A DNA stretch of 64,000 nucleotides from Bacteroidota bacterium (GCA_013376995.1 JACAAZ010000008.1:386-64385), one strand, 5' to 3'; shown: positions 46,198 through 63,843, counted from the stretch's first letter. A program made the numbers and translations. The notes: generated by a model from the sequence alone, not told the origin.

Positions 46198-47397
46198 TCA
46201 AAGTTTTATCCAAACAACCGTCATTGCCTGTGGATTCACACCGGTGATCCAGTCTTCAACACCGGAACCATCGAGGTTTGAACGCATAATTTTTCCATCA
46301 GGACTGGAATTGGATATCTTATAACTCCAGAAAAGTTTTCCACGTTTCTGGTCAATGGCTAAACCCCAGGTTGCTTTAGTGCCGTAATCACCAATTTTTG
46401 TCAGGCCGCTCCCATCGAGGTTGCATTCATAAATTCCGCCTTCGATTACCGGGGTTGTGCTGGCATATAAGGCTAAATAGACCTTTCCATTAACCAGGTC
46501 AACTTCGATTGCGGTACCATCCACATCCTGTATCCGCTCATTGATTGCTGAACCATCAAAGTTCATCGTAAAATATCCTCCTGTATAGTCGGTTTTATCA
46601 TTCACGAGGTAAATGGTGCCACTTACCGGGTCATATTGCATGTCAATAGGGTATTCAGGAGCCGCAGTACCTGTTGAAATATAGGTTTCAGGATTGCTAC
46701 CATCGAGGTTCGCCCGGAATATGCCCCCGGGCGAGCCCCAATAGATCTTATCTCCGTATACGAATATAGCTTCAGGTGTGCCTGTAAGTTCCTGGCCCGG
46801 GACAGAAGCATCCAGGATTTTTTCGGGATTTGTTCCATCGGCATTGTAGCGATAAATCGTCCCGTTTGAATAATCAGTAACATAAACCTTCTTATTGGCA
46901 GTATCAACAGCAATCCCATAAGGCCTTGAGAAACTGGCAGGGGCAAAATCCTGCACTACCGGAGCATTATCATTAAGCACCACCATATGTACCGCCCCCC
47001 CGTCAGGAGTCCGGGTTGTAAAATAGAGAACCTGGGTGAGCCCTGCATTGGGATCCTTAACATTGACAACCATGGTTTTGACCAATTGGTTGTAATAAAC
47101 ATCATTAACCGGGGTACAGGTTAAAGTAACCGTGTAAAAACCTGCCGAATCGTACTGCATGGTTGGATTGGCTTCGGTAGAAGTTTTACCATTTCCAAAA
47201 TCCCAGTGATATGCTGTAGCATTAAGGGATGAATTGGTAAAGGTGACTACGCATGGGGCCTTGCTGCTATTGGTGGCCGTAAAGTTAAAGTCAGCAACTG
47301 TGCTTGCAGCAGGGTTTCCCAATTCGTATTTATTGCATCCTGCGGCTATCAATAAAGCCGAGAGGATTATCATTAGGAAAATCGTATGTCTTTTCAT
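46198..47397 (-). CDS. Surface lipoprotein with a PKD domain and a YWTD/LDLR-B-like beta-propeller
   Basis: Lipobox AAGC; FTNSS...YHWDFGNG...NPTMQY (PKD); five [IY]xxxNxDG[ST] repeats. Confidence 0.82.
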   Translation of the reverse strand: MKRHTIFLMIILSALLIAAGCNKYELGNPAASTVADFNFTATNSSKAPCVVTFTNSSLNATAYHWDFGNGKTSTEANPTMQYDSAGFYTVTLTCTPVNDVYYNQLVKTMVVNVKDPNAGLTQVLYFTTRTPDGGAVHMVVLNDNAPVVQDFAPASFSRPYGIAVDTANKKVYVTDYSNGTIYRYNADGTNPEKILDASVPGQELTGTPEAIFVYGDKIYWGSPGGIFRANLDGSNPETYISTGTAAPEYPIDMQYDPVSGTIYLVNDKTDYTGGYFTMNFDGSAINERIQDVDGTAIEVDLVNGKVYLALYASTTPVIEGGIYECNLDGSGLTKIGDYGTKATWGLAIDQKRGKLFWSYKISNSSPDGKIMRSNLDGSGVEDWITGVNPQAMTVVWIKL

Positions 47398-47419
47398 AAT
47401 TTTCTAGGTTTCCAAATGG

Positions 47420-48760
47420 TTAGTAACCGGGGTTTTGTTCCATTAATTTATTGGTCTGCATCTCACTCAGGGGAATAGGAAATAAAGTGTATTTAGCGTC
47501 TATCCCCAGGACCGTTTTTGCCCTGCCGGTTCGCACAAGGTCAATCCATCTTTGGCCTTCAAAAGCAAATTCATGTCGGCGTTCATTTTCGATAGCCAAT
47601 TTCAGATCATCTATTGTAGCAAACTCAGTATTAGCCAGGCCTGCCCGGTTACGCACCAGGTTGACATCTGCCTGTATGGCCTCGACAGCTCCCCCGGAAT
47701 ATGCCAATGCTTCGGCCCTGGTTAGAACTACATCCGACAGCCTCGAAACATAAACCCTGTCAGTGCCGCCGGAGACATCATTGTATTTAATACAGTAAGG
47801 CAGATTCTTCTCGTCATAGGCAACACTACCGGCAAGACGCAAATCACCGGTTTCAAAACTCTGGATGAACCCGCTTGTTGGTGCAACTTCATAACGGCCA
47901 AGAAGATTTCGCGTGTAATAATATTGTGCGAGCCTGTTGAAATTCTGAAGATCATACACAACTTCAAAAATGGATTCTGCAGAAACAGTACCAGCACTAA
48001 AAAGCGTCTGAAAAGCAGGTTCAAGCGAATACCCTCCTTCGTCAATCACACGGGTGGATTCCTGGATAGCAAGCTCTGCTGAAGGCTGATCTGCCTCCAT
48101 CTGAAATTTAGACAGGTAAACTTTTGCAAGCAGCGCAGAGGCAGCATATGAATTTGCCCTGCCATTCACTTTTCCTGTGGATAGTTTATTCTTTGCCTCT
48201 TCAAGATCGGCTATTACCTGGTTGAATACTTCAGAGGCTGTATTCCGTTTTGCATCTATGCTGCTTAAACCAAGGGTTGGCAAAGTCTTAATCGGAACGC
48301 CCCCAAAATGAAGAACCAGGTTATAATAAAGCAATCCCCTGATATATAGTGCTTCCCCACCAATCTGATCAGCCACCGGCTGGGTAATATCTTTAATAGA
48401 TGGTAGCGCATCAAGGACATTATTTGCCCTGTTGATCCCATCATAAGAAGCGGCCCAGAAGCCATCAACTATACTATTATCGGCCGGGACGGGCTTTTTC
48501 TCAATCTGACCATAGTCCTGGCTTGTACCGGTCCAGGTCAGGTTATCAGCTGCAAGATCGCTAACGATGACAAAGTTACGCCCATACAGTCCAACAGCCT
48601 GAAGTGAATTGTAAGTTCCAATAAGTGCATGCTCTGCACCGGCCTTAGAACTGATGGCTATATCACTTGAAATGGAAGCAGTGGGCTTTACATCCAGTAT
48701 TTTATTGCAGGATGCCAGAGTAATGACAGGGATCAGGAGGTATAAAAATATCTTTTTCAT
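47420..48760 (-). CDS. RagB/SusD family outer-membrane lipoprotein
   Basis: Start 48760, lipobox LASC; EALYIRGLLY, RLSDVVLTRAEA, ERRHEFAFEGQRWIDLVR and FPIP.SE. Confidence 0.95.
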   Translation of the reverse strand: MKKIFLYLLIPVITLASCNKILDVKPTASISSDIAISSKAGAEHALIGTYNSLQAVGLYGRNFVIVSDLAADNLTWTGTSQDYGQIEKKPVPADNSIVDGFWAASYDGINRANNVLDALPSIKDITQPVADQIGGEALYIRGLLYYNLVLHFGGVPIKTLPTLGLSSIDAKRNTASEVFNQVIADLEEAKNKLSTGKVNGRANSYAASALLAKVYLSKFQMEADQPSAELAIQESTRVIDEGGYSLEPAFQTLFSAGTVSAESIFEVVYDLQNFNRLAQYYYTRNLLGRYEVAPTSGFIQSFETGDLRLAGSVAYDEKNLPYCIKYNDVSGGTDRVYVSRLSDVVLTRAEALAYSGGAVEAIQADVNLVRNRAGLANTEFATIDDLKLAIENERRHEFAFEGQRWIDLVRTGRAKTVLGIDAKYTLFPIPLSEMQTNKLMEQNPGY

Positions 48761-62686: not shown

Positions 62687-62733
62687 TATTTCCAGATAGA
62701 TTCCAAGGTATCAACAAGTTAAAATTTTACGAT

Positions 62734-63843
62734 ATGCGCATAGACAGAGTTGAACTCCGCCACATTAAAATGATCCTGGTCAGCCCATTTGTAACTTCGA
62801 TGGGTACAGAGTATGATGAAGAACATATAATTGTAAGGGTTGATGCAGAGGGTGTCACCGGCTGGGGGGAAAGCGTTGCCGAAGGTACTCCCTTTTATTC
62901 TTATGAAACAGTTCCTACTGCCTGGCATATTCTCCAGGACTTCCTGATTCCTTCTATCCTGGGTAAGGATATAAAGAATGTAGATGAAGCCATTGCTGCA
63001 TACGCTAAAGTGCGCGGCCATATGATGGCAAAAGCAGGGCTGGAAGCTGCATTATGGGATGCATTTGCAAAAACACAGAATATTTCACTTTCAAAAATGT
63101 TGGGTGGGGTGCGTGATAAAGTCGATGTTGGTGTCAGCATTGGGATCCAGGATTCAGTTCCGCACCTTATAAAAAAAGTTGAAGGTTACCTTGCAGAAGG
63201 TTACGGACGGATAAAGATCAAGATTGCTCCCGGCCTCGATTTACAGTTCGTGGAAGCTTTGCGGAAGGAGTTCCCGGATACGCTATTGCAGGTAGATGCC
63301 AATTCGGCCTATACCCTTGATCATATCGGGCTTTTTAAGAAAATGGATGGATACAACCTTCAGCTGATTGAACAGCCTTTGGGTTACGAAGATATTTATG
63401 ACCATTCAAAGCTACAGCGGGAGCTTAAGACAGCCATCTGCCTGGATGAGAGTATTCATTCGCTGGATGATACCCGTGCGGCCATTGAACTTGGGAGTTG
63501 CAGGGTGATCAATATCAAGCCCGGGCGGGTTGGTGGCTTTACCGAATCGAAGCTGATCCATGATTACTGTGCGTCGAAAAATATCCCGGTATGGCATGGA
63601 GGGATGCTTGAATCAGGGATTGGCAGGGCCGGGAATGTTGCTCTTGCATCCTTGCCCAATTTCACCATGCCCGGAGATATTTCTGCAAGCAAACGATACT
63701 ATAAGGAAGATATAGTAGATCCTGAATTCGTTGTAAATCCTGATGGCACCATGACCGTTCCCACAGGTCCGGGTATTGGAGTTGAGGTAAATATGAAGAT
63801 GCTGGAAAAGGTAACAGTGAAGAGCCTGGCATTTAAGGCATGA
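62734..63843 (+). CDS. menC: o-Succinylbenzoate synthase / N-succinylamino-acid racemase (NSAR/OSBS) family enolase
   Basis: PFVTSMG, KIKI, DAN, EQP, DES, NIKPGRVGG, GGMLESGIGRA and PGDISAS; no other men genes nearby, so function is uncertain. Confidence 0.85.
   Translation: MRIDRVELRHIKMILVSPFVTSMGTEYDEEHIIVRVDAEGVTGWGESVAEGTPFYSYETVPTAWHILQDFLIPSILGKDIKNVDEAIAAYAKVRGHMMAKAGLEAALWDAFAKTQNISLSKMLGGVRDKVDVGVSIGIQDSVPHLIKKVEGYLAEGYGRIKIKIAPGLDLQFVEALRKEFPDTLLQVDANSAYTLDHIGLFKKMDGYNLQLIEQPLGYEDIYDHSKLQRELKTAICLDESIHSLDDTRAAIELGSCRVINIKPGRVGGFTESKLIHDYCASKNIPVWHGGMLESGIGRAGNVALASLPNFTMPGDISASKRYYKEDIVDPEFVVNPDGTMTVPTGPGIGVEVNMKMLEKVTVKSLAFKA

Follow-up and report, generated by a model that had tools for sequence, protein, structure and literature searches.

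The subject of this analysis is a stretch of 64,000 nucleotides from an uncultured freshwater Bacteroidales bacterium (Bacteroidota bacterium, GCA_013376995.1, JACAAZ010000008.1:386-64385), referred to below as the window, in which positions 46,198 to 63,843 hold eleven genes that are likely to form a cyanophycin utilization locus. The locus appears to follow the design of a polysaccharide utilization locus (PUL), with a SusC/SusD importer, in a host that is unable to make cyanophycin. This reading is well supported by sequence and synteny, from which every step of the proposed pathway is drawn. Two cyanophycinase-like enzymes of family S51 share an operon with the importer, a gene for an isoaspartyl dipeptidase diverges from it, and the arrangement recurs in related genomes. 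The locus adds a member to a type known since 2017 as a prediction from a genome, and brings no new principle; its least explained part is a pair of genes for an M14 carboxypeptidase-like enzyme and an NSAR/OSBS-type racemase.

Organization and genomic setting

The source genome comprises 5.05 Mb and is 96.7% complete. Open reading frame (ORF) calling combined with Pfam and NCBIfam searches recovers all eleven genes with the coordinates, domains and spacings proposed in a first-pass annotation of the window, and the two databases agree with its domain assignment for every gene. The left arm is a minus-strand operon in the order S51L, S51s, SusC, SusD and PKD lipoprotein, S51L being the longer and S51s the shorter of the two S51 enzymes. 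Three of the intergenic gaps measure 22, 24 and 22 bp; the SusC-SusD spacing is 19 bp when counted from the Met of the SusD start MKKIF (48760), and the longest SusD ORF overlaps SusC by 14 nt. As had been proposed, the five genes end at one terminator, an intrinsic-terminator-like hairpin with a 17-pair stem and a T-run (46128-46166, minus strand) that follows the PKD gene. The hairpin (46166-46128), being two-sided, stands behind the convergent upstream gene as well; a 575-aa BamB/PQQ-like β-propeller is encoded at 44349-46076 (+) and converges on it. This propeller gene and those for MarC and AraC (together 41984-46076) were considered as locus members and rejected, as they are not conserved beside any related locus.

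On the other side, S51L and iadA lie on divergent strands at a distance of 95 bp, as the first-pass annotation had it. The iadA and M28 reading frames share 4 nt, and rightward of M28 follow a protein with a C-terminal domain (CTD) of the type IX secretion system (T9SS), a DcuC/YfcC permease, the M14 enzyme and the MR_MLE (NSAR-type) enzyme. The earlier statements that the locus lacks carbohydrate-active enzymes (CAZymes) and cyanophycin synthetase also hold, as no CAZyme domain was seen among the locus proteins and no cyanophycin synthetase was found genome-wide, the top TIGR02068 score being 67 bits against a cut-off of 850. The bacterium is unable to make cyanophycin, and S51L and S51s are the sole cyanophycinase-like genes of its genome. 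Since the synthetase is absent from the genome, the locus is read as one of scavenging.

Inspection of the N-termini for signal peptides and lipoboxes places a signal peptidase I (SPI) signal on S51s, S51L, M28 and M14 and a lipobox on SusD and the PKD protein, while IadA and the NSAR-type enzyme are without a signal peptide. Signal peptides, lipoboxes and T9SS CTDs are thus distributed as the compartment model set out below requires.

The two S51 enzymes

S51s (51708-52964, minus strand; 418 aa) is assigned as a long, CphE-type cyanophycinase. It scores 164.2 bits against TIGR02069, above the equivalog cut-off of 126.6, and aligns with the solved cyanophycinases 7uqv (E 2.6e-20) and 3en0. The motifs GGDQ, GSSAGA, DQHF-x2-R-x-R-x2-R (here DQHF-EA-R-A-R-IG-R) and GIDENT are kept and are invariant in 23 family members; in the alignment, they supply the Ser-His-Glu triad and the Gln, Asp-Gln and Arg-Arg-Arg pocket of Synechocystis CphB. 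With an SPI signal peptide and neither a lipobox nor a T9SS domain, the protein is probably periplasmic. The family is large, with more than 1,437 relatives at E<1e-30, mostly of about 424 aa and mostly from Bacteroidales or Bacteroidota metagenome bins. Homologues from Gamma- and Alphaproteobacteria span the full 418 residues, and S51s is therefore taken to be the long, exported (CphE-like) form of the enzyme.

S51L (52987-54945, minus strand; 652 aa) is cyanophycinase-like and predicted to be exported by the T9SS. It is made up of a signal peptide, an S51 domain (residues ~20-290), an α/β domain (~296-560) and a type-A T9SS CTD. Its match to TIGR02069 stays below the cut-off, and it aligns with the PDB cyanophycinases 7uqv and 3en0. 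The nucleophile Ser and the His are retained, together with GGDQ and the three Arg residues; across 15 orthologues, the motifs GGDQ, GTSAG, DTHF-x2-R-x-R-x2-R and GMDD do not vary. In its AlphaFold (AF2) model, with a predicted local distance difference test score (pLDDT) of 82, the best fold match is to cyanophycinases (TMt 0.77). The Por_Secre_tail match at 22.6 bits falls under the Pfam cut-off of 27; the CTD is nevertheless supported by the tail of the model, which matches the fold of the mirolase CTD.

The middle domain of S51L (window 53266-54063, minus strand) is confidently modelled as α/β, and neither Pfam nor the PDB yields a sequence relative for it. In this domain, the motifs AFxGxxxRxxG, ENxxxxxPY and GIWL are invariant across the 15 orthologues. 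The idea that it might be a dead duplicate of the S51 domain finds no support at the level of sequence, where hhalign gives a probability of 0.2% for domain 1 against domain 2.

The importer and its surface lipoprotein

SusC (48780-51683, minus strand; 967 aa) is a SusC/RagA-type TonB-dependent transporter (TBDT) with a TIGR04056 match of 839 bits, the SusC signature, and Plug and CarboxypepD_reg domains; orthologues in the same position of other loci are 60-78% identical. The SusD-family lipoprotein (47420-48760, minus strand, with MKKIF as its likely start; the longest ORF begins at 48793) matches SusD-like_3 and SusD_RagB and carries the lipobox ...LASC, and its place straight after SusC is conserved across loci. 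A SusC-family TBDT and a SusD lipoprotein therefore stand adjacent in a single operon, which is the hallmark of a PUL-type importer.

The last gene of the operon (46198-47397, minus strand) encodes a lipoprotein with PKD_4 and PKD matches, a lipobox (LIAAGC) and weak NHL, Ldl_recept_b and DUF5050 matches that suggest an NHL/YWTD-like propeller. It always comes after SusD, with 57-80% identity between loci. As its position equals that of the surface glycan-binding proteins of PULs, it is, by analogy, a candidate substrate-binding protein.

The iadA arm and the permease

IadA (55041-56168, plus strand) is identified as an isoaspartyl (β-aspartyl) dipeptidase by a TIGR01975 score of 443.5 bits, above the equivalog cut-off of 331.25, and its sequence assigns it to the cytoplasm. 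The gene is divergent from an S51 gene in nearly all loci, with 66-90% identity. An exported M28 aminopeptidase with a PA domain follows (56165-57766, plus strand; Peptidase_M28 124 bits, signal peptide), and adjoins iadA in about half of the loci.

The T9SS-exported protein (58131-59240, minus strand; 369 aa; Por_Secre_tail 36 bits) is a β-supersandwich with a T9SS CTD behind it. Its start was corrected: the 427-aa ORF (58131-59414) is an in-frame over-extension, and Met59 is indicated as the start both by orthologues and by the signal peptide. The AF2 model (pLDDT 87) resembles the N-terminal β-sandwich of GH15/GH94 enzymes and the P1 domain of YidC, no catalytic motif was recognised in the protein, and it is a candidate surface binder. 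Orthologues occur in most loci, those without SusD included. The gap between this gene and the permease gene (59241-59551) is 311 bp here against 111-118 bp in the two closest relatives; the additional ~200 bp are in frame with the T9SS gene and add the 58 codons to its ORF. Comparison of the window with these two relatives yields no conserved ORF in this gap.

The inner-membrane permease of the DcuC/YfcC family (59552-61153, plus strand; PF03606 304 bits) scores 336 bits against the YfcC model NF008611, below its cut-off of 500. It is a candidate importer of β-Asp-Arg, a role supported by the contexts in which the family occurs in alphaproteobacterial and SusD-less loci. Directly upstream of a long cyanophycinase, on the same strand, a relative 26-30% identical is found in about 15 alphaproteobacterial loci, and in SusD-less loci a DcuC-family gene follows the S51 gene. 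In the alphaproteobacterial loci L096-L120 (Maricaulis, Hyphomonas, Citromicrobium and others), the DcuC/YfcC gene lies about 2 kb upstream of the cyanophycinase gene, and iadA was not detected within 10 kb.

Recurrence across genomes

Recurrence of the gene combination had been set beforehand as a test of the proposal. Contigs representing one genome per species were scanned with profiles of S51s (536 stretches matched) and S51L (117 stretches); the best 80 of each were kept, and their gene content was established by tblastn of the window proteins. The outcome favours the proposal, as the combination is present in most of the ~100 Bacteroidota loci fetched: where a locus is sufficiently long, the order is mostly iadA(-) followed by S51L, S51s, SusC, SusD and PKD(+). 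Roughly one in three loci anchored on S51s has no S51L, and in many loci the T9SS protein, the M14-NSAR pair and DcuC are found at a distance of up to 10 kb. Exact protein look-up likewise gave three contigs that carry S51-SusC-SusD-PKD, a divergent amidohydrolase, M14, MR_MLE, M28, DcuC and a Por_Secre_tail protein. The closest relative, a Bacteroidales bin (L001/L130), has a gene order identical to that of the window, with 51-90% identity. Almost all hosts are uncultured (Lentimicrobiaceae, Prolixibacteraceae, Draconibacterium, Saprospiraceae and other Bacteroidales), and isolate names point to lakes, wastewater and sediments.

Seven regions from other classes in which NSAR and cyanophycinase genes occur together were also fetched (L209-L215), and one of these (L210) was annotated by Pfam. 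Its order is M20, short S51, DcuC, T9SS β-sandwich, RpiR, TonB-dependent receptor, 920-aa protein, PorV-like, S51L-type, M14 and NSAR. At L210:8051-14314, the place of SusC/SusD is taken by a TonB-dependent receptor (817 aa), the 920-aa protein, which has no Pfam match, and the PorV-like protein (330 aa); the gene beside this three-gene importer block encodes an RpiR/SIS regulator. An IS200-like (Y1_Tnp) transposase gene sits between the M14 and S51L-type genes (L210:5017-5520). The accessory set of S51L, T9SS protein, DcuC, M14 and NSAR hence surrounds an importer other than SusCD in another class. As the set travels with the S51 genes despite the swapped importer, DcuC, M14, NSAR and the T9SS protein are supported as parts of the system.

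The divergent control region and terminators

The divergent control region (54946-55040, 95 bp, no strand assigned) contains two promoter-like -7 boxes, which emerged when about 60 orthologous intergenic regions were compared without alignment; the region is ~85-120 bp long in most loci. A TAnnTTCGC box precedes the S51 gene by ~20-30 nt; the box on the iadA side is printed GCTAAATTA or GCAAAGTTG, the complement of TAATTTAGC or CAACTTTGC. The Bacteroidetes -7 element is TAnnTTTG, and the two boxes look like back-to-back elements of this kind, with the difference that the S51-side box has a final TTCG in place of the consensus TTTG. A general sigma-70 promoter scan was no better than chance (43 found against 37.9 expected from shuffles) and was set aside. 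No conserved leader ORF was found in the divergent region across the ~60 orthologues, and its 95 bp leave no room for one.

A second hairpin with a T-run (58060-58095, minus strand) follows the T9SS-protein gene. No regulator gene lies within the locus, neither a hybrid two-component system, nor SusR, nor an extracytoplasmic function (ECF) sigma/anti-sigma pair.

The M14 and NSAR pair

The exported M14 zinc carboxypeptidase-like enzyme (61160-62686, plus strand; 508 aa; Peptidase_M14 74.6 bits, signal peptide) retains HxxE (H104, E107), H190 and E286, all invariant in 38 orthologues, and its gene adjoins the NSAR gene in nearly all loci. Identification of the protein as CphZ was considered and not adopted: a PDB search yields distant carboxypeptidases (E ~1e-5) from a library that may hold no CphZ, and AstE_AspA_cat is below cut-off.

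Its neighbour (62734-63843, plus strand; 369 aa) is a cytoplasmic enolase-superfamily enzyme of the NSAR/OSBS subfamily, with N- and C-terminal MR_MLE domains. It matches Amycolatopsis NSAR (1sja) at E 1.7e-106 and TIGR01928 at 367 bits. The motifs KIKI, VDAN, IEQP, LDES and IKPGRVGG are conserved relative to 1sja and contain the Lys pair, the three metal ligands and a second-shell Arg, which we take to be the equivalents of 1sja K163, D189, E214, D239, K263 and R266. The protein is the only one with an MR_MLE_C domain in the genome. No MenB is encoded there, the top TIGR01929 score being 122 bits against a cut-off of 342.7 (MenB is the one men gene that was checked). With MenB absent and this protein the sole enolase-superfamily member, a role in menaquinone synthesis is unlikely, and its identification as a housekeeping MenC was rejected.

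The distribution of the enzyme ties it to cyanophycinase. Across most Bacteroidales loci, NSAR is 74-89% identical, compared to ~50% for cyanophycinase. Of 401 evenly sampled Bacteroidota genomes, 15 hold an NSAR orthologue at an identity of at least 65%, and 13 of these 15 carry a cyanophycinase, against ~8% of all sampled genomes; in all ten cases where both genes share a contig, they are 2-19 kb apart. By synteny, the NSAR-type racemase is thus a member of the system. In the regions from other classes (L209-L215), the NSAR orthologues are 65-86% identical, nearly always beside M14, and far better conserved than other locus proteins. Among the top-ranked results of a literature search, no paper links NSAR or the enolase superfamily to cyanophycin.

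As to what the enzyme does, the best guess, made on chemical reasoning, is that it would act at the α-carbon of Arg in β-Asp-Arg, which can be regarded as an amino-substituted N-succinyl-Arg. A bolder proposal is that NSAR and M14 mark an undescribed scavenging step, in which NSAR would carry out an L/D conversion of β-Asp-Arg/Lys or of a related N-acyl-Arg, or else that the natural substrate is a racemised or D-residue relative of cyanophycin, with a branched isopeptide polyamide as the cargo of SusCD; this is considered rather unlikely, and if true would give SusCD a class of cargo not yet shown for it.

Proposed pathway and alternative readings

In the pathway that would follow from these assignments, S51L, exported by the T9SS, attacks insoluble or soluble cyanophycin from lysed producers at or near the cell surface, possibly with the PKD/propeller lipoprotein and the T9SS β-sandwich protein as helpers. 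SusD and SusC would then carry (β-Asp-Arg)n fragments into the periplasm, where S51s would cut them to β-Asp-Arg and the exported M28 and M14 enzymes may trim ends or remove Arg. The dipeptide would be imported by the DcuC/YfcC-family permease and split by cytoplasmic IadA into Asp and Arg, and two back-to-back promoters in the 95-bp gap would drive both arms. The first-pass annotation described such a route as a complete scavenging chain. A PUL-style chain is indeed the best explanation of the locus, but "complete" is an overstatement, given that its steps do not account for the roles of M28, M14, the T9SS protein and NSAR and that the locus has no regulator.

Several observations weigh against a cyanophycin locus of this kind. 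The TIGR02069 score of S51L is 83.4 bits, below the cut-off of 126.6, and in all 15 orthologues the triad Glu is replaced by Asp and the pocket Gln by Thr; the substrate or mode of action of this enzyme may therefore differ from that of a cyanophycinase. Solved cyanophycinases yield dipeptides (PMC10206079), and if the surface enzyme releases dipeptides, a SusCD importer would hardly be needed. Canonical cyanophycin breakdown does not need M28, M14 or NSAR. The assembly contig stops ~540 bp past the NSAR gene, so that the right-hand border of the locus is not visible, the sequence was matched solely in DNA runs of one freshwater metagenome study, and the literature searched contained no characterised enzyme from such a locus.

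The alternative that best survives is a different or broader substrate, such as a cyanophycin-like or racemised and aged isopeptide polymer, poly-Asp, or peptides from detritus with β-aspartyl or D-residues, with S51L, M14 and NSAR defining the specificity and canonical cyanophycin as a minor substrate or just one of several. The sub-threshold score and invariant Ser-His-Asp variant of S51L, with its Gln-to-Thr change, would fit such a substrate, as would the M14 and NSAR genes, which are conserved, intact and tightly linked yet dispensable in canonical breakdown, and the promiscuity of IadA enzymes from cyanophycin clusters (PMC10206079). S51s, however, passes the cyanophycinase equivalog cut-off with all pocket residues kept, GGDQ and the three Arg residues are still present in S51L, and neither a ligase nor any other enzyme of the locus points to another polymer; a different or broader substrate is judged unlikely.

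A narrower reading would limit the system to the left arm and iadA and assign the T9SS protein, DcuC, M14 and NSAR to something unrelated, for example general peptide or N-acyl-amino-acid salvage. The right-hand genes do shift in position and strand, are missing within 10 kb in about a third of the loci, and have a terminator and the 311-bp gap between them and iadA-M28. Against this stand their company with S51 genes across classes and with two importer types and the close association of NSAR with cyanophycinase both in genome counts and in distance, which make the narrower reading very unlikely. Lastly, it is barely credible that the locus is a RagAB-like oligopeptide uptake system for ordinary proteins with the S51 enzymes acting as peptidase-E-like aspartyl peptidases: RagAB, which are homologues of SusCD, do import peptides (PMC9723704), and exopeptidases (M28, M14) are plentiful here, but by sequence and fold the S51 proteins match cyanophycinases best, not peptidase E, and IadA is specific for β-aspartyl dipeptides.

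Relation to known systems

A cyanophycin utilization locus thus remains the preferred reading, and this type of locus has a precedent. The first-pass annotation supposed that no SusC/D-coupled cyanophycin locus had been described, a claim of novelty that fails, because Sharon et al. 2023 (PMC10206079) credit Ben Hania et al. 2017 (Environ Microbiol 19:1134) with a locus of Bacteroidetes strain L21-Spi-D4 that bears the name "cyanophycin utilization locus". In the 2023 study, clustered cyanophycinase and isoaspartyl dipeptidase genes were found in 45 of 52 genomes lacking cphA. The definition of such a locus as paraphrased there describes the present case, in which cyanophycinase genes are clustered with iadA and a transporter in a host without the synthetase. 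Sorokin et al. 2018 (PMC6243061) describe a pair of S51 enzymes in this strain, Salinivirga cyanobacteriivorans L21-Spi-D4, of which one is plain and the other carries a Por-secretion domain. Going by the descriptions in these citing papers, the strain shares with the present locus the combination of one plain and one Por/T9SS enzyme, and differs in that Salinivirga is an isolate from a hypersaline mat whereas the host here is an uncultured freshwater Bacteroidales bacterium. The Salinivirga locus is not among the best 80 of either scan. The abstract of the 2017 report is said to describe a transport complex homologous to polysaccharide utilization loci. Searchable papers contained no report of an experimental test of the 2017 prediction, and full-text searches for cyanophycin with SusD, utilization loci or polysaccharide utilization gave nothing further of relevance.

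Transport of cyanophycin products has also been proposed outside the Bacteroidota. In Citromicrobium, a TBDT encoded next to a cyanophycinase was predicted from genome context to import them (Tang et al. 2012, PMC3400609). The basis in genome context is the same in both cases, and a Citromicrobium locus is among the matches of the present analysis, with a DcuC-like gene upstream; it belongs, however, to the Alphaproteobacteria and lacks SusD, a T9SS enzyme and any iadA within 10 kb. For the enzyme S51s, the nearest parallel is CphE, an extracellular cyanophycinase of Pseudomonas anguilliseptica (Obst et al. 2002, as cited in PMC10206079 and PMC9974463). S51s is a long cyanophycinase (~420 aa) with a signal peptide, and its full-length homologues are proteobacterial; CphE is released into the medium, whereas S51s probably resides in the periplasm behind the SusCD importer. 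CphE is presumably of similar length to S51s.

With canonical PULs (Sus) and RagAB, the locus shares a surface hydrolase, a SusC/SusD pair and a surface lipoprotein in one operon; unlike them, it is free of CAZymes and its putative cargo is a branched isopeptide polyamide. The NSAR-type enzyme likewise has all catalytic and metal-binding residues of Amycolatopsis NSAR/OSBS (1sja) and differs in context, being encoded in a cyanophycin locus beside an exported M14 enzyme and not with a succinyltransferase or desuccinylase or with men genes.

Significance

Cyanophycin is a major store of nitrogen and carbon in cyanobacteria and many heterotrophs, and little is known about its recycling once cells have lysed in lakes, mats and wastewater sludge. 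Loci such as the one described here are candidates for the turnover of cyanophycin by uncultured Bacteroidota, and the link of NSAR and M14 to cyanophycinase genes across classes is a concrete biochemical lead. If the prediction holds, a non-ribosomal branched polyamide would join glycans and ribosomal peptides as cargo of SusCD systems.

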